Sequence record: MK448234.1
DNA length: 48,230 bases
Reading direction: 5' to 3' (one strand)
Origin: Klebsiella phage ST11-VIM1phi8.2
The translations under genes were made by a program, and so were the position numbers. The notes under the pieces were generated by a model. It saw only the letters and a list, made by a program, of their open reading frames with translations, searched no databases and was not told the DNA's origin. Of this stretch, positions 28,417-40,470 are shown one piece after another (position 1 is the first letter of the stretch; the number at the start of each line of letters is the position of its first letter).

Positions 28417-29445
28417 ATGAGCGAATCGTTGAAGGATGTTGTTTCATCAGTTAAAGATGCAATAATTACACCAGTCCAAGAGGCTTTTGTATATAGGGCA
28501 AAAAATCCATTTTTTGGAAGTTTGATTATATCCTGGGTTTACTGGAACTGGAATAAAATTGCTTACATGCTACTTTCGGATGATGATGTTTTAAAGAAAA
28601 TAGAATTTATAAAAAAATCAATCCCTGACAATACCCTTATACCATTTACGTCTTTTAGCATACCCCACACACATAGCTTATGGTTTCCTTTATTTTTCTC
28701 AATATTTTTCACCCTTAGCTACCCTGTTTTCTCTTGGGTTCTTACACTAATTCATAAGGGTATTTCTTTCCGCATTGAGAAAGTAGATTCTGAAAAGGAG
28801 GTTAAGAGACTCCAGCTTCAGGGTGCTATAATTACAGAGTTTGAAAAAAATGAGGGGCTCAGAGCAGTTGAAAGATCGAAAACAGAGGAGACAAAATTCT
28901 CAACAGCAGAAAGAGCAGCAGAGTCAAAATATAACATTAAAGAATTGCAAACCCAGCATGCCACGCTAAAAACTGAAGTCGCTCAACTTGAAAAGCAGAA
29001 GCAAAGTATGGAAACGATTTTAAGCGAGCAAGAAAAGAGAAGAAAAGGAGTTGTTGAAGAAATAACCTTACTCCAAGAAAAAGTCGCACCAGAAAGGGAA
29101 AGCGTCCAGAGAATTGAGCGAATAATAAATAGAAATATAGAATTAGAAAACCTTTTAACCACAAAGGAATCTCTGATTAATAGCAAACTTGATGAAACAA
29201 ATCAAAAATATGCATTTTACTTCAGCAACATGGTAATGCTTGATATGTATAAAGTTGAGTGCGAAAATTACAGAAAAATATTTAAGGAATTAGAAGAAAA
29301 AACCACTCAGATTTTTAGTTATGTTGAATCTGATGACCCTACCAGAGGTAGGAGCAATGAAGGGTATTTCATGTTAAAAAGCGATATAAAGGAACTAGTA
29401 AGCAAAGGGCTAGATCACGAGCAGAAATTTAGAAATTCTCACTAA
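28417..29445 (+). CDS. AT-rich two-TM plus long coiled-coil protein (342 aa). Moron; candidate abortive-infection or exclusion factor.
   Basis: Strand opposite to all neighbouring phage genes. Very low GC. Two hydrophobic helices (residues ~30-50 and ~85-115) then ~200 aa of heptad-rich E/K/Q sequence. Upstream TGGTTA repeats and a CATAAT -10 box. Confidence 0.6.
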   Translation: MSESLKDVVSSVKDAIITPVQEAFVYRAKNPFFGSLIISWVYWNWNKIAYMLLSDDDVLKKIEFIKKSIPDNTLIPFTSFSIPHTHSLWFPLFFSIFFTLSYPVFSWVLTLIHKGISFRIEKVDSEKEVKRLQLQGAIITEFEKNEGLRAVERSKTEETKFSTAERAAESKYNIKELQTQHATLKTEVAQLEKQKQSMETILSEQEKRRKGVVEEITLLQEKVAPERESVQRIERIINRNIELENLLTTKESLINSKLDETNQKYAFYFSNMVMLDMYKVECENYRKIFKELEEKTTQIFSYVESDDPTRGRSNEGYFMLKSDIKELVSKGLDHEQKFRNSH

Positions 29446-32533: not shown

Positions 32534-32644
32534 GTTCCAATTCCTATAAGTATTGGTGCAAAGTGATAATAGCAATTCGTATTGGCTTTAGCAATAGCAA
32601 AACGTGTTTTGACCAGTAATACGCAAGCGTATAAATTTGAAATT
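32534..32644. promoter_or_regulatory. OR-like operator/promoter region (pR/pRM) with ATAGCAAT-type repeats
   Basis: gataATAGCAATtcg at 32565-32576 and TAGCAATAGCAA at 32589-32600. The same 12-mer ATTGCTATTATC (reverse complement) occurs at OL. Confidence 0.5.
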
Positions 32645-33343
32645 ATGAAAAAAGAAACTCTTGCAGATCGTCTAAACGAAGCCATGAATTTGGCTGGAAT
32701 GTCCCAGGGGGCGCTTGCTAAGGCCTCAGGTATTGCTCAGCCGACCATTTGGCGCCTTGTAAGCGGAAACGCCAGGGGATCAACAAAAATTGTCGAGATA
32801 GCTAATGCTTTAGGCGTCAGGTCTGAATGGTTATCAACCGGCAATGGACCGATGCGCGATGATGGCCAGCTTCCTCGTGCTGCCCAGGTTAAAAGTCAGG
32901 ATACTGATGCATTCAGGATTGATGTGCTGGACCTTATGGTTAGTGCCGGTCCGGGCATCGTGAACCAGGAGTTCGTGGAGATCCTCCGCTCCGTAGAATA
33001 TGCACCGGCGGAAGCGCGCCACATGTTCGATGGACGCAAGGCTGAGAGCATCCGTATCATTAACGTCCGCGGAGACAGCATGTCTGGGACGATCGAGCCT
33101 GGCGATCTGCTGTTCGTGGACATCAGCGTTAAGAGCTTTGACGGCGACGGGATATATGCGTTCCTGTACGACGACACTGCTCACGTGAAGCGCCTTCAGA
33201 AGATGAAGGACAAGCTGCTGGTTATCTCAGACAACAAGAGCTATGCAGCATGGGACCCGATCGAGAAAGACGAGATGAATCGGGTGTTCGTGTTCGGCAA
33301 GGTGATAGGCAGCATGCCGCAGACGTACAGGAAGCATGGGTAA
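32645..33343 (+). CDS. CI repressor (HTH plus S24 LexA-like peptidase domain)
   Basis: The N-terminus (LAKASGIAQPTIWRLVSG) is an HTH. The C-terminus has GDSMSGTIEPGDLLFVD...KRL of S24 autopeptidases. ATG at 32645. Confidence 0.8.
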   Translation: MKKETLADRLNEAMNLAGMSQGALAKASGIAQPTIWRLVSGNARGSTKIVEIANALGVRSEWLSTGNGPMRDDGQLPRAAQVKSQDTDAFRIDVLDLMVSAGPGIVNQEFVEILRSVEYAPAEARHMFDGRKAESIRIINVRGDSMSGTIEPGDLLFVDISVKSFDGDGIYAFLYDDTAHVKRLQKMKDKLLVISDNKSYAAWDPIEKDEMNRVFVFGKVIGSMPQTYRKHG

Positions 33344-33365: not shown

Positions 33366-33485
33366 ATGTCTGATCTGATTATCCCAATACTCATTACTTT
33401 GCTGATTATCGGACTAGTTGGGATAGCGCTCAGGTTGGAGAAGGTATTCTTCAAGCGAAGGGAGGAGCGGAATGACTTTGAATAA
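33366..33485 (+). CDS. 39-aa single-TM peptide downstream of cI
   Basis: MSDLIIPILITLLIIGLVGIALRLEKVFFKRREERNDFE. Not in the ORF track because it is under 60 aa. Confidence 0.35.
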   Translation: MSDLIIPILITLLIIGLVGIALRLEKVFFKRREERNDFE

Positions 33486-33630
33486 ATCAGTGCAGAAGGT
33501 TGATTTGATGTATTGAGGGAATGAATCATCTCCAACGCAATGATTATTAATATCTTTTTGTAAGTCTATGATGACCGGATAATTTTCTGGTCGCTTTTTT
33601 CATTACACACGGTAAACTTAGGATTAAATT

Positions 33631-34707
33631 ATGAAGTCGGAACTGGCGGAAGTTGCGAACGATATGGTAGATACAAATAAGAAATATTTGATCTGGAACA
33701 ATAAAGGCGGCGTTGGGAAAACGTTTTTGACCTATAATCTTGCTGTCGAGTATGCAATAGCGCATTCGGATGAAGATGTAGTCGTTATAGATGCCTGCCC
33801 TCAATCAAATGTTTCTGAGATTATTTTGGGCGGCAATGGAGTTGGAGAAGAAAATCTTAACAACCTCCGTGATAGAAATACTACTATAGCTGGTTACATT
33901 AAAGAGCGCTTTAGCAACTCTCCACTTGCACGCCTGGGGAATGAGTCTTCATATTTTGTTAAGGCTCATTCTGTAAATCCAAAAATGCCAAACAATCTTT
34001 ATCTTTTACCAGGTGACGTAGACTTAGATATTTGTTCAAGGCTTATTGCGCATATTGGATCCTCACCGGTTAAAGAAGCTTGGAAAAAAAGTCGATCACT
34101 TTTGATAGACCTCATCGCTTCATTTGAGGCAGATAAAACTATTTCCGAGAGGCCTAAAACGTTTTTTATTGACTGCAACCCTAGTTTTGCAAGCTACACA
34201 GAACTTGGAGTTGTCGCATCAAATCGAGTAATTATTCCATGTACAGCCGATGCTGCCTCAATTCGTGGTATCAAAAACTTAGTTAAATTGATTTATGGAG
34301 TTTCTATTGATAGCACTGAACAAGACGAAATGTTCCTTGATTTCAACAAGGAAGCAAAACAAAGTAAAATAGAATTCCCCAAGCTACATCTATTCGTCCA
34401 AAACCGATCTCGAACCAACGAAAGCGACGCTGCAAAAGCATTCAAGTCGCACGCTGAAGAAATAAAAAGAATCACATCTGAATTATTAAAAACACACCCT
34501 CATTTATTTACTGATGAAAGCATTGATGATCGCGTTAAGCACGTTAAAGATGGCAACACTCTTGCCGCAATCATTAATCATGAAGGCTGCCCATTAAGCA
34601 ATCTTCAACACAAAAGTTACACTATTTATGGTATGGCAACACAAGCAAATAAAGCTCAAATTGATGCTTTAGAAGCTGATGTAAATGGTGTTGTCTCCTG
34701 TATCTGA
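33631..34707 (+). CDS. ParA/MinD-family deviant Walker-A ATPase (358 aa) at the rexAB-equivalent position. Orphan: no ParB partner.
   Basis: N-terminal NKGGVGKT (the KGGxGKT deviant Walker A). AT-rich. Co-oriented with cI. Own plus-strand terminator at 34758-34783. Confidence 0.7.
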   Translation: MKSELAEVANDMVDTNKKYLIWNNKGGVGKTFLTYNLAVEYAIAHSDEDVVVIDACPQSNVSEIILGGNGVGEENLNNLRDRNTTIAGYIKERFSNSPLARLGNESSYFVKAHSVNPKMPNNLYLLPGDVDLDICSRLIAHIGSSPVKEAWKKSRSLLIDLIASFEADKTISERPKTFFIDCNPSFASYTELGVVASNRVIIPCTADAASIRGIKNLVKLIYGVSIDSTEQDEMFLDFNKEAKQSKIEFPKLHLFVQNRSRTNESDAAKAFKSHAEEIKRITSELLKTHPHLFTDESIDDRVKHVKDGNTLAAIINHEGCPLSNLQHKSYTIYGMATQANKAQIDALEADVNGVVSCI

Positions 34708-34757
34708 TTAGTTAACTTGATATTGTAACCAACAATCATTATCTATTTACAATCCAC

Positions 34758-34783
34758 AACCCGGCCCCCGCGCCGGGTTTTTA
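34758..34783 (+). terminator. Rho-independent terminator after the ParA-like gene (CCCGGC-ccccgc-GCCGGG + TTTTT)
   Basis: Seen directly in the sequence. Confidence 0.55.
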
Positions 34784-34788
34784 CTGCC

Positions 34789-34992
34789 CTACTCTTCCCG
34801 CGGCATCAACACATCCAGTGCCAGCTCTACCGCCAGATCTACCTGCTCACCCTGCCACAACACCTGAATCATCTCTATCAGCGCCTCTCTTGAGGGCTCG
34901 CGCTTCTCAACCAGCAGCTGCATAACCGCTATCCCGATGACCTGCGCTATCTGCTGATGCATCTCTGTGAAAAACTCATCCTCATTTGACAT
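34789..34992 (-). CDS. Small highly acidic protein (67 aa) divergently transcribed from the OL region
   Basis: MSNEDEFFTEMHQQ...ELALDVLMPREE, E/D-rich. Start at the internal ATG 34992. Confidence 0.45.
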   Translation of the reverse strand: MSNEDEFFTEMHQQIAQVIGIAVMQLLVEKREPSREALIEMIQVLWQGEQVDLAVELALDVLMPREE

Positions 34993-35039
34993 GCCGCCAC
35001 CCTTGCTGATGTTTTTTTGAGCACAACAGCACAATAGCA

Positions 35040-35213
35040 AAAAATAAATTCATTTAGCTATCAATGGTTTAATAGCCATTGCTATCAATTAATATCAATA
35101 CGTATTGCTATGGTTAATACTCATTGCTATTATCATCTCATCCAAACAACACCGGCAACGCCGGGTAATCGTAACAACGCTCAGCTGGCCGGCTTTAAGG
35201 CAAAGGTGAAGAG
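35040..35213. promoter_or_regulatory. OL-like operator/promoter region with at least three ATTGCTAT repeats
   Basis: ATTGCTAT at 35078-35085, 35104-35111 and 35123-35130. The palindromic ATAGCcattGCTAT is present. Shares ATTGCTATTATC with OR. Confidence 0.5.
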
Positions 35214-38899: not shown

Positions 38900-39210
38900 C
38901 TAATACATCTCATAAATCAGATGAAATTTTGATAACCGATGACGTTCTGTCCAGATACAAAATATCGCGCAGCACACTCTATTTCTGGAGCACCCCATCC
39001 CGGATGCCCTCTTACTTTGCTCAGCCATTCCCGCAGCCTAAAATAAATGGCAGCCCTAAAAGGTGGAGACTTTCAGACCTGCTGGCCTGGGAGGATAACG
39101 TGGGGATCAAACCAGAGGCTGACCAACCAGCTTCTCAAGGTGATCCTGCCAAACAGCAAGCCAGTGACGCTGATCATCCAGATAATCATGCAGGTTATAA
39201 CGTGCCATGA
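38896..39210 (+). CDS. xis: AlpA-family excisionase / transcriptional regulator
   Basis: ISRSTLYFW...KRWRLSDLLAWE matches the AlpA/Xis HTH pattern. Convergent with the integrase, overlapping its 3' end by ~100 nt. Confidence 0.6.
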   Translation: MTNTSHKSDEILITDDVLSRYKISRSTLYFWSTPSRMPSYFAQPFPQPKINGSPKRWRLSDLLAWEDNVGIKPEADQPASQGDPAKQQASDADHPDNHAGYNVP

Positions 39211-40336
39211 CACCTGCCATATGATGGCCAAGCAGTTTTTCCACAACATGTGGCGGCGCACCTAATTCAGAAAGGCGTGTCGCCACTGTTCGTCTGAGGT
39301 CATGGAGAGACCAGGGCTTCATGCCTGTTTTAGCTATAATCTGAGCAGAAAACAGAGCGACGTTTGGTTGTTGTGGCGGTCTGTCATCTTCTGGCCCTCT
39401 GTAGCGTGACAGTGTCACAACGTGTTTTGAAACTGACGTTTCCTTCTCTGCTAACATCATTCTTACTACTGCCTCGGGAAGTGCCCTTCTGACCGATTTC
39501 CCGGTTTTATAATCGCTTGCCGGAATGGTCCACGTTTGCTCATGGAAATCGAACCACTCCCATCTTGCTGTCCTGATCTCCGTACTCCGGCAGCCAGTCA
39601 TGATGAGAAACTTCATTATCAGCTGTTGTCTGTACTTCATTTCAGGAAGGATGTTCCAAACTGTTTTGATTTCCTCATCACTCAATCTGCGATCTTTTAC
39701 GGATGCTGTGAGACCTACGTCAGAGCGCCTAAGGCTCTCAATTGGGTTCACATTAATGACCCCTCGATTGGAGCAAAAACGGAACGTACGCTGCATCAGC
39801 CCAAGCATCTGACCAGTGACAACTCTTCGCCCCATGCCATCAAAAAGGTTAAGCCAGTGCGCTTTAGTGGTCTGATCAACAATCATGTTCCCCAGCACAG
39901 GCGCTATATGGTTATTGAAGTCCCGCCGGTTAACCTTGATTTTCACAAGACCTTCAGGGATGCAGTAATACTTTTCCCAGTAATCGAAAGCCTCTTTAAC
40001 GGTGAGTGCTTCGACTTTTTTCTGTTTCTCCAGAACTGTTTGCCGTCTCGGATCGAGTCCTTCTGTCAACCAAGCCCTGAACTGCTGTCTACGTTCGCGA
40101 GCTTGAGATAAGGAGGTGGTGGGATAATCGCCAATCGTTAGCTGAGCGGCTTTCCCGTTCCATCTGTAGCGGTAAAAGAATGTTATACTGCCGGAAGTAG
40201 ACAACCGGACATTCAGACCATGAGCGTCCGATATGACCTCGATCTGGTCTCTCTTTTTGCCAAGAGCTTTTCTTAATTTTGTGTCGGTAAGCAATGTGTA
40301 CACCCCGGAAGATGATATACACATCAGTGTACACAT
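39107..40336 (-). CDS. int: Tyrosine integrase (P4/lambda-type)
   Basis: The C-terminal catalytic region has R...HDLRRT...RLLGH...Y motifs. The ORF track starts at 40375. A more plausible start is the Met at 40336 or 40324. Confidence 0.85.
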   Translation of the reverse strand: MCTLMCISSSGVYTLLTDTKLRKALGKKRDQIEVISDAHGLNVRLSTSGSITFFYRYRWNGKAAQLTIGDYPTTSLSQARERRQQFRAWLTEGLDPRRQTVLEKQKKVEALTVKEAFDYWEKYYCIPEGLVKIKVNRRDFNNHIAPVLGNMIVDQTTKAHWLNLFDGMGRRVVTGQMLGLMQRTFRFCSNRGVINVNPIESLRRSDVGLTASVKDRRLSDEEIKTVWNILPEMKYRQQLIMKFLIMTGCRSTEIRTARWEWFDFHEQTWTIPASDYKTGKSVRRALPEAVVRMMLAEKETSVSKHVVTLSRYRGPEDDRPPQQPNVALFSAQIIAKTGMKPWSLHDLRRTVATRLSELGAPPHVVEKLLGHHMAGVMARYNLHDYLDDQRHWLAVWQDHLEKLVGQPLV

Positions 40337-40470
40337 TTTGGTTAAATTGATAACCTTCAAATCAATGCAGAACACACAAAATTAAAGCACTCAATGCTGG
40401 CAAGGTGTTGGTATTAGCGGGATTTTTGAAAAGACTTAAAGCATGACTAACAAACTTAAAACGGATTCAT

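Follow-up and report, generated by a model that had tools for sequence, protein, structure and literature searches.

The closest described system is GiPD474 (STM474_RS13505), a single gene of 1086 nucleotides (nt) within the immunity region of prophage Gifsy-1 in Salmonella Typhimurium 4/74. Its product is a ParA/MinD/Soj-like protein with an AAA_31 domain and the sequence GGVGKT at residues 29-34 (Bosma, Noireaux, Bowden, Appl Environ Microbiol 2025, PMC12724215). Here we analyse a stretch of 48,230 nt from Klebsiella phage ST11-VIM1phi8.2 (MK448234.1), referred to below as the window, in which the gene at positions 33631-34707 encodes an ATPase of 358 residues. Comparison of the sequences indicates that this gene is probably the Klebsiella pneumoniae ortholog of GiPD474, that is, a stand-alone prophage anti-phage ATPase of the ParA/Soj superfamily. 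An earlier note on this DNA had proposed a phage-exclusion role for a ParA-type ATPase lying where lambda carries rexAB, and had not recognised such a system as described. The proposed role is supported by the likeness to GiPD474 and by the presence of RexA/RexB and BstA in the same slot of sister phages. As to novelty, the paper of 2025 already covers the family, its Klebsiella/Enterobacter clade included (PMC12724215), and the system is thus already known.

The published phenotype of GiPD474 is strong and selective. Deletion of the gene restores plating of phage Felix O1 (FO1), complementation brings the resistance back, and the gene on a low-copy plasmid restricts FO1 in Salmonella LT2 (PMC12724215). 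In heterologous tests in LT2 and E. coli K-12, plating of T4 is cut by about 5 log and that of Alf5 by about 5.5 log; T7, SP6, LPST153, Jbel, VpaE1 and S16 are insensitive (PMC12724215). The gene is highly transcribed in exponential growth and is also expressed under stress; its authors consider a possible post-adsorption action, call the mechanism unknown and tested no Walker A mutant (PMC12724215). Homologs of at least 70% identity form three clades, one of them mainly from Klebsiella and Enterobacter, and lie beside cII, cro and repressor genes (PMC12724215). Our literature search found no work on GiPD474 later than this paper.

The assignment of the window gene rests on its comparison with P0018, a protein of 361 residues encoded by a 1086-nt gene of locus L184, with KGGVGKT at residues 28-34, in agreement with the description of GiPD474. 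The primers published for GiPD474 point to the same gene. The forward knockout arm (40 nt) matches L184 and five viral loci of the IMG/VR database (L127-L131) at 40/40 positions, the check primer (23 nt) matches L184 and four of these loci at 23/23 and the remaining one, L130, at 22/23, and the reverse arm matches at 39/40; the C-terminus of P0018, ALESDVSTVVKCL, is what this reverse arm encodes. The cloning primers fall at 913-934 and 2078-2097 of L184 (one and two mismatches) and span the ATPase gene alone. The 90%-identity cluster of P0018 includes proteins of S. Typhimurium and E. coli. Between the window ATPase and P0018 there is 83% identity and 92% similarity over 357 residues without a gap. 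The paper sets 70% as the lower bound of both identity and coverage for the GiPD474 family; with P0018 standing in for GiPD474, the window protein shows 83% identity over 357 of its 358 residues. The two genes also agree in their ParA/AAA_31 fold, in their Walker A motif and in their setting, each standing alone within the immunity region of a prophage, beside repressor, cro and cII genes. They differ in the N-terminal tail and in length (358 versus 361 residues), and in the surrounding phage: the window phage has a lambda-like backbone with an S24-type CI, whereas the repressor upstream in L184 is a helix-turn-helix (HTH) protein of 155 residues without a Peptidase_S24 match.

The ATPase itself was correctly seen by the earlier note as a ParA/MinD/Soj-type protein with a deviant Walker A motif. 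Its KGGVGKT sequence occupies residues 25-31, with the signature lysine at K25 and the P-loop lysine at K30, and profile searches return Pfam AAA_31 (3.2e-17), CbiA (3e-9) and PHROG 164, ‘ParA-like partition protein’ (1e-46). In an alignment of 32 homologs of 54-100% identity, K25, K30, D54 and D181 are invariant, as are the motifs W22-NNKGGVGKT, D54-x-CPQ-x-N, GD-x-DLD-x-CS, D181-CNPS, PC-xx-DAAS-x-RG, N-x-SR and KD-x-NT, and conservation extends through the C-terminus. The AlphaFold model is confident (predicted local distance difference test, pLDDT, 87; predicted template modelling score, pTM, 0.89), and its best Foldseek matches in the Protein Data Bank (PDB) are McdA, Soj and ParA, at E ~1e-11, with template modelling (TM) scores of about 0.55 over the query and 0.72-0.78 over the targets. 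Taken together, the fold matches and the end-to-end conservation indicate one ParA-fold domain enlarged by insertions rather than a core followed by a C-terminal domain, so that the C-terminal extension of about 100 residues previously assumed does not exist as a separate unit. By eye, the terminal helix (residues 341-357) seems acidic. When the PDB was searched with the sequence and with profiles, matches were confined to the P-loop and Walker B level, the best being 3PG5, an uncharacterised protein of 361 residues. Among NCBIfam models there were only sub-threshold matches, to ParA, MinD, BcsQ and ArsA.

The window protein resembles ParA, Soj, SopA and McdA in fold, in the signature lysine of the deviant Walker A motif and in the A' and Walker B aspartates, but is about 90 residues longer through its insertions, and its TM-score over the query reaches only about 0.55. 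This likeness makes it necessary to consider that the gene encodes an orphan partition or positioning ATPase that maintains or segregates the phage genome, for instance in an excised or pseudolysogenic form. Such a role has been speculated for phage phi297, where Krylov et al. drew attention to a parA homolog that lacks a parB (PMC3564109), and it would fit the ParA fold with its deviant Walker A motif and the occurrence of subfamily B homologs on P1-like phage-plasmids. Most of what surrounds the gene speaks against it, however, and we give it hardly any credence. As stated previously, neither a ParB partner nor centromere-like repeats accompany the gene: no adjacent parB was found, the rest of the window not having been scanned gene by gene for ParB; the cI operators are the sole repeat arrays, no parS-like array was detected and matches to the parS consensus were not above chance. 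The prophage is integrated, sister phages with an empty slot exist, no neighbour is conserved across 90 loci, and the window protein reaches 47.6 bits where the NCBIfam ParA_partition model requires 180, which sets it apart from type I partition ATPases. In the one P1-like plasmid inspected, a ParB family gene is also present, elsewhere on the plasmid and by its replication gene. A role in partition was rejected on the last of these grounds together with the lack of parS or other repeat arrays and of a conserved neighbour; the phenotype of the tested ortholog, moreover, is phage restriction.

In lambda, rexAB is co-transcribed with cI from PRM. The window gene lies in the identical slot, downstream of and co-oriented with the CI gene, as originally observed, and a sister phage has rexAB between the very same junctions. 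These junctions were mapped by blastn and by alignment of the window to L001 (empty slot), L015 (rexAB) and L002. The left one lies at about 33486, immediately after the stop codon of an open reading frame (ORF) of 39 codons, and the right one at about 34759, the base with which a hairpin common to all aligned sister phages begins (AACCCGGCC.CCGCGCCGGGTTTTT). The guanine-plus-cytosine (GC) content is 0.36-0.40 across the ATPase gene compared with 0.53-0.58 in the flanks. The description of the locus as an AT-rich two-gene insert with its own terminator can therefore be kept in part: the insert is AT-rich, but the ATPase gene is the only gene between the junctions, and the terminator belongs to the backbone and not to the cassette, because sister phages with other cargo or none possess it as well. 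The same hairpin is also present 3' of the ATPase gene in Siccibacter.

Other phages fill the slot differently. In Klebsiella phage 2 LV-2017 it is empty, with only about 39 bp between the junctions. ST101-KPC2phi6.1 carries RexA and RexB there (PADLOC 1.7e-109 and 1.3e-60), RCIP0114 carries BstA (PADLOC 5e-119) adjoining an rve-family transposase gene of an insertion sequence (IS), and 2b LV-2017 a three-gene cassette including an MqsA-like protein. Phages 6 LV-2017 and ST15-VIM1phi2.1 encode two unknown proteins of about 90 and 190 residues, and vB_Kpn_RAH1 unknown proteins of 125 and 40 residues. Since the cargo varies in this way, between RexA/RexB, BstA, an MqsA-like cassette and unknown genes, the slot downstream of cI is a defence hotspot. 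A comparable exchange has been reported for Gifsy-1, whose immunity region holds the three-gene remAIN defence system in strain 14028s and a single gene in 4/74 (PMC12724215). The cassettes encoding proteins without known function lie at L002 3120-3922, L102 1236-2101, L100 1484-2008 and L101 797-2313; the pair of about 90 and 190 residues, the pair of 125 and 40 residues and the MqsA-like three-gene cassette are candidate new defence cassettes.

The two characterized occupants of the slot are related to the window gene by position rather than by descent. With RexA/RexB it would share an exclusion role, but there is no sequence or fold kinship, the window encoding one soluble ATPase and Rex comprising a sensor and a membrane protein; no window protein gave a PADLOC match to RexA or RexB. 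BstA, a prophage abortive-infection protein, is likewise a single-gene prophage defence found in this slot, in phage RCIP0114. It has no PADLOC or Pfam family in common with the window protein, however, and it is DNA-binding, shows no detectable ParA-type domain and has a self-immunity element.

The example of RexAB raises the question of whether the 39-codon ORF and the ATPase gene form a two-component system, for example a membrane effector with an ATPase sensor in the manner of RexB and RexA. The two are adjacent on the same strand, and the peptide is indeed a predicted membrane peptide, as had been noted, with a strongly hydrophobic core, LIIPILITLLIIGLVGIAL, and a 19-residue Kyte-Doolittle maximum of 3.0. 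The ORF, however, lies outside the cassette and recurs beside the empty slot, rexAB, the MqsA-like cassette, the 125-residue cassette and an ATPase allele of 36% identity, its copies in sister phages showing conservative substitutions only. It thus travels with the cI type and not with the ATPase gene, and is missing from most other ATPase loci. In the GiPD474-type locus L184, the interval from the repressor gene to the ATPase gene has no plus-strand ORF of at least 20 codons. The sites matched by the GiPD474 cloning primers lie about 25 nt upstream of the L184 gene and 74 nt downstream of it, so that the protective fragment corresponds to that gene alone; this, with the lack of the ORF in L184, indicates that the peptide is unnecessary for activity of the ortholog. 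We therefore find it very improbable that the peptide is the partner of the ATPase, as had been suspected. The ORF and the terminator downstream of the cassette are backbone and stand outside the defence system, and the peptide could be an independent small membrane protein belonging to the immunity operon.

The features of the locus are listed in Table 1. Repeat sets of the right (OR) and left (OL) operator regions flank it, which places the ATPase gene inside the immunity region, between cI and OL with its promoter PL. Promoter-like sites are found on both strands within OR, divergent, between cro and cI, and the PL-like site is at 35105-35133; a TTG at 32582 is a possible alternative start of the CI gene. 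Homologues of the phrog_3946 gene occupy the equivalent position in sister phages. Beyond the integrase lie sapC/sapD-type ABC transporter genes and then fabI, matching the annotation of the same locus in CP089956. This arrangement upholds the initial description of an integrated lambdoid prophage and places it next to sapC; a search for tRNA genes found none.

Table 1. Features of the prophage locus, with positions in the window
Feature	Position	Strand	Remarks
Right operator region (OR)	32564-32610	.	Repeat families D1, D2, I1 and I4, common with 35069-35135
CI repressor gene	32645-33343	+	HTH_3 and Peptidase_S24 domains; from the ORF list
39-residue hydrophobic ORF, predicted single-pass membrane	33366-33485	+	AGGA ribosome-binding site; backbone gene tied to the cI type
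Cargo cassette downstream of cI	33486-34759	.	GC 0.374; 1.27 kb; sole gene is the ParA-like ATPase gene
Terminator-like hairpin, then C and six T	33572-33593	+	Lies upstream of the ATPase gene within the cassette; free energy (dG) -11.2 kcal/mol, z -2.5
358-residue ParA/Soj-type ATPase, probable GiPD474 family	33631-34707	+	Walker A K25-T31; D54 (A'); D181 (Walker B); KDGNT 306-310
Intrinsic terminator of the immunity operon	34758-34785	+	Backbone feature; dG -14.6 kcal/mol, z -3.2
Small conserved phage gene, phrog_3946 (8e-39)	34789-35040	-	Between the backbone terminator and OL/PL
Left operator region (OL) with PL-like promoter	35069-35135	.	Repeat families D1, D2, I1 and I4
Tyrosine integrase at the prophage end	39107-40375	-	Followed by chromosomal sapC/sapD-type genes from 40471

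Two further observations concern the prophage as a whole. The record CP089956.1 (L097), deposited as a circular plasmid of 27.8 kb, holds the prophage arm together with chromosomal sapC and sapD, and is probably a mis-circularised fragment of a chromosome. In the nin/replication region of the window, an ORF of 342 codons (28417-29445, plus strand) with a GC content of about 0.31 lies on the strand opposite to its neighbours; it gave a weak coiled-coil match (DUF7310) only, was negative in PADLOC and looks like a second AT-rich accessory gene.

Expression of the gene together with the repressor in the lysogen, as the earlier note assumed, is plausible but in this prophage less certain. The cassette contains a terminator-like hairpin between the 39-codon ORF and the ATPase gene, which makes co-transcription with cI less secure, and a search for a promoter between this hairpin and the ATG of the ATPase gene gave nothing convincing. 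The Siccibacter and Leclercia copies lack the hairpin, and upstream similarity to them starts only about 28 nt before the ATG. No terminator-like site intervenes between cI and the ATPase gene in the loci of Siccibacter, Lonsdalea and phi297.

This uncertainty is one of several points that weigh against our assignment of the gene as a functional GiPD474 ortholog. Given the hairpin and the lack of a convincing promoter downstream of it, expression of the ATPase in this lysogen is an assumption. The equation of P0018 with GiPD474 is drawn from primer matches, gene length and motif position and not from the deposited protein. The window ATPase differs from GiPD474 in 17% of its residues, and that the Klebsiella allele would protect is argued from sequence similarity. 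PADLOC v2.0.0 has no model for this ATPase family, so no independent database confirms the assignment; neither the window ATPase nor the 39-residue peptide nor the divergent ATPase alleles gave a match. Finally, the dimer switch and the binding of DNA or of a phage component that we put forward below are suggested by analogy with the ParA fold only.

Relatives of the window protein extend well past the Enterobacteriaceae. When 5.8 billion non-redundant proteins, clustered at 90% identity, were searched through a word index, 2,264 were recovered, and an exhaustive HMMER search of a separate library of 1.84 billion proteins (representatives of 50%-identity clusters) found 65 at E <1e-30; 417 of 185,579 species genomes encode one. 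Hosts include Campylobacter (71% identity), Acinetobacter, Azospirillum, Planctomycetes, Verrucomicrobia, Spirochaetes, Firmicutes and two archaeal metagenome-assembled genomes, and the genes occur at accessory-gene positions of prophages, in a small integrative element by an SNase gene, beside HicAB and as a one-gene chromosomal insert. The 90%-identity cluster of the window allele has one member found on at least 1,000 contigs, mostly labelled Klebsiella pneumoniae. With the Salmonella-type gene as query, blastn detected a related allele, about 81% identical in nucleotides, in 71 of 5,426 complete E. coli genomes; megablast had given no matches, and the absence from E. coli that this seemed to indicate was rejected as a limit of its sensitivity. 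The copy in Leclercia adecarboxylata NCTC13032 (92% identity; L023 10001-10863) is split into two ORFs, the result of either a frameshift that made it a pseudogene or faulty assembly.

In IMG/VR, 109 contigs carry relatives. In 41 of the best 80 of these loci, the gene immediately upstream is cI-like and lies on the same strand; these cI-like genes belong to 16 cI types (70% identity), and the ATPase alleles linked to them range from 31% to 100% identity, all solo. A single cI type is found with ATPase alleles of 32% and 97%, or of 36% and 100%. Clustering of the neighbours of 90 loci revealed no conserved partner gene. Some immediate neighbours elsewhere are themselves defence genes (MADS, AriA-like, NsnA, PD-T4-2 and restriction-modification methylases); the commonest immediate neighbours are IS1595 transposases (7/146) and HEPN_RiboL-PSP genes (4/146) in a Pfam scan.

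Pairwise identities separate several branches. The GiPD474 branch, whose members are at least 59% identical, includes proteins from Klebsiella, Salmonella, Campylobacter, Acinetobacter and Azospirillum. The phi297 group (52-87% among members) unites phi297, the gene of the P1-like plasmid, a cI-linked allele, IS1595-linked copies and Methanoperedens. A third cI-linked group consists of L178 and L173 (90% to each other), a group linked to HEPN genes in Betaproteobacteria is about 36% identical to the window protein, and the viral locus L166 stands alone at 32-41% to all others. Identity from branch to branch is only about 35%. Three branches are found independently in the slot downstream of cI, others on P1-like phage-plasmids, in units flanked by IS1595 and paired with HEPN genes. 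It is possible, and we propose it tentatively, that the GiPD474 type is one branch of a larger unrecognised family of solo ‘long ParA’ ATPases comprising at least four to five branches about 35% identical.

Several of these contexts deserve description in their own right. In Alphaproteobacteria, an IS1595-family transposase gene lies beside the ParA-like gene in seven loci (L022, L053, L055, L057, L063, L075 and L084), five of which also have an ORF of 143 codons nearby, which suggests that these genes are transposon cargo. A relative was found in 156 plasmid records of PLSDB, most of them non-mobilizable plasmids of E. coli, Klebsiella and Salmonella with a homolog of about 35% identity; the plasmids listed measure about 93-190 kb, mostly 93-103 kb. 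On the P1-like phage-plasmid NZ_CP142951.1 (L096 5983-7038), the plasmid inspected above, the gene follows icd, two KilAC-domain genes and an HTH gene of 281 codons, and stands where P1 has repL.

The HEPN-linked relatives bear more directly on function. Anantharaman et al. (2013) predicted that pairs of ParA/Soj and HEPN genes are toxin-antitoxin systems with the ATPase as antitoxin (PMC3710099). In Betaproteobacteria, the ParA-like gene of about 36% identity, of the same length as the window gene, directly precedes a HEPN_RiboL-PSP gene of 200 codons, the stop and start codons abutting or overlapping (L076 11026-11628 and L082 1685-2287; also L071, L085 and L091). This pair looks like a two-gene conflict system related to those predicted in 2013, with the difference that the earlier pair involves the MAE_18760 HEPN family and the Pfam match here is to RiboL-PSP. 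The window ATPase might accordingly be read as an orphan regulator or antitoxin descended from such pairs, whose effector would be encoded at another place in the host or by a different phage; it might be an anti-defence factor, for instance, or the remnant of an addiction module. Against this, the window gene, like the rest of its subfamily, stands solo: no HEPN RNase gene is present near it in the window, nor in any of the 41 cI-linked viral loci, HEPN genes are as rare among immediate neighbours as stated above, and clustering ties only five loci to the 200-residue partner. Furthermore, a plasmid with GiPD474 alone protects both Salmonella LT2 and E. coli K-12, which disfavours a strain-specific effector. 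We consider such an origin and role improbable.

ParA/MinD-family proteins also regulate division and envelope machines. The window gene could therefore be a lysogenic-conversion factor that alters host division, envelope or nucleoid, as MinD, MipZ or BcsQ do, with the drop in plating an indirect consequence. The control of such machines by MinD-type relatives, the high expression of GiPD474 in growth and stress, and the label ‘BcsQ’ attached to homologs in some sources would be in line with this. The effect of GiPD474 on phages is, however, both large and phage-specific: T4 drops by about 5 log with no effect on the related S16 and Jbel, and FO1 and Alf5 are hit but VpaE1 is not. Its authors, too, propose a possible block after adsorption. 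The window protein scores far below the NCBIfam cutoffs for MinD and BcsQ (MinD TIGR01968, 18 bits against 212.9). An indirect effect of this sort seems to us very unlikely.

We thus return to the reading of the window gene as a stand-alone anti-phage ATPase, and to how such a protein could act. The invariance of K25, K30, D54 and D181 across the family points to sandwich dimerisation, and the protein would work as an ATP-dependent sandwich-dimer switch, as do ParA, Soj and MinD. Because there is neither a fused effector domain nor a conserved partner gene, we favour direct interference: our best guess is that the ATP-bound dimer itself would disturb some phage-specific step that comes after entry of the DNA. 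Its binding target could be DNA, or else a phage component of replication or packaging presented by only some phages. More speculatively, it might interfere directly with replication, positioning or packaging of phage DNA, triggered or targeted by a phage-specific factor. A universal host factor as the target would be a less likely alternative. High conservation across phyla, together with activity in two host genera, speaks for a ligand that is universal and against a partner specific to the host; DNA, a nucleotide or some widely conserved phage component could be that ligand. The HEPN-paired relatives suggest, by analogy, that the ParA fold may also switch a separate effector.

Our work adds the Klebsiella allele of a known family and a broader picture of that family to what has been published (PMC12724215), and this broader picture may merit follow-up. 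Genome annotation describes the gene merely as a ‘ParA family protein’, and PADLOC v2.0.0 is silent on it; flagging it as a likely defence gene matters for predicting the phage susceptibility of clinical Klebsiella and hence for phage therapy. The scientific question is how a ParA-type ATPase with neither an effector domain nor a partner stops a phage. The map of the cassettes presented here, with empty, RexAB, BstA and ParA-like slots, divergent alleles and HEPN-paired relatives, should help to frame work on the mechanism. If the ATPase is itself the effector, it might, for example, cover incoming phage DNA or place it wrongly, or capture a ParB-mimicking phage protein, and would represent a new defence principle derived from DNA-partition machinery, one that operates without a nuclease, NADase or membrane effector.

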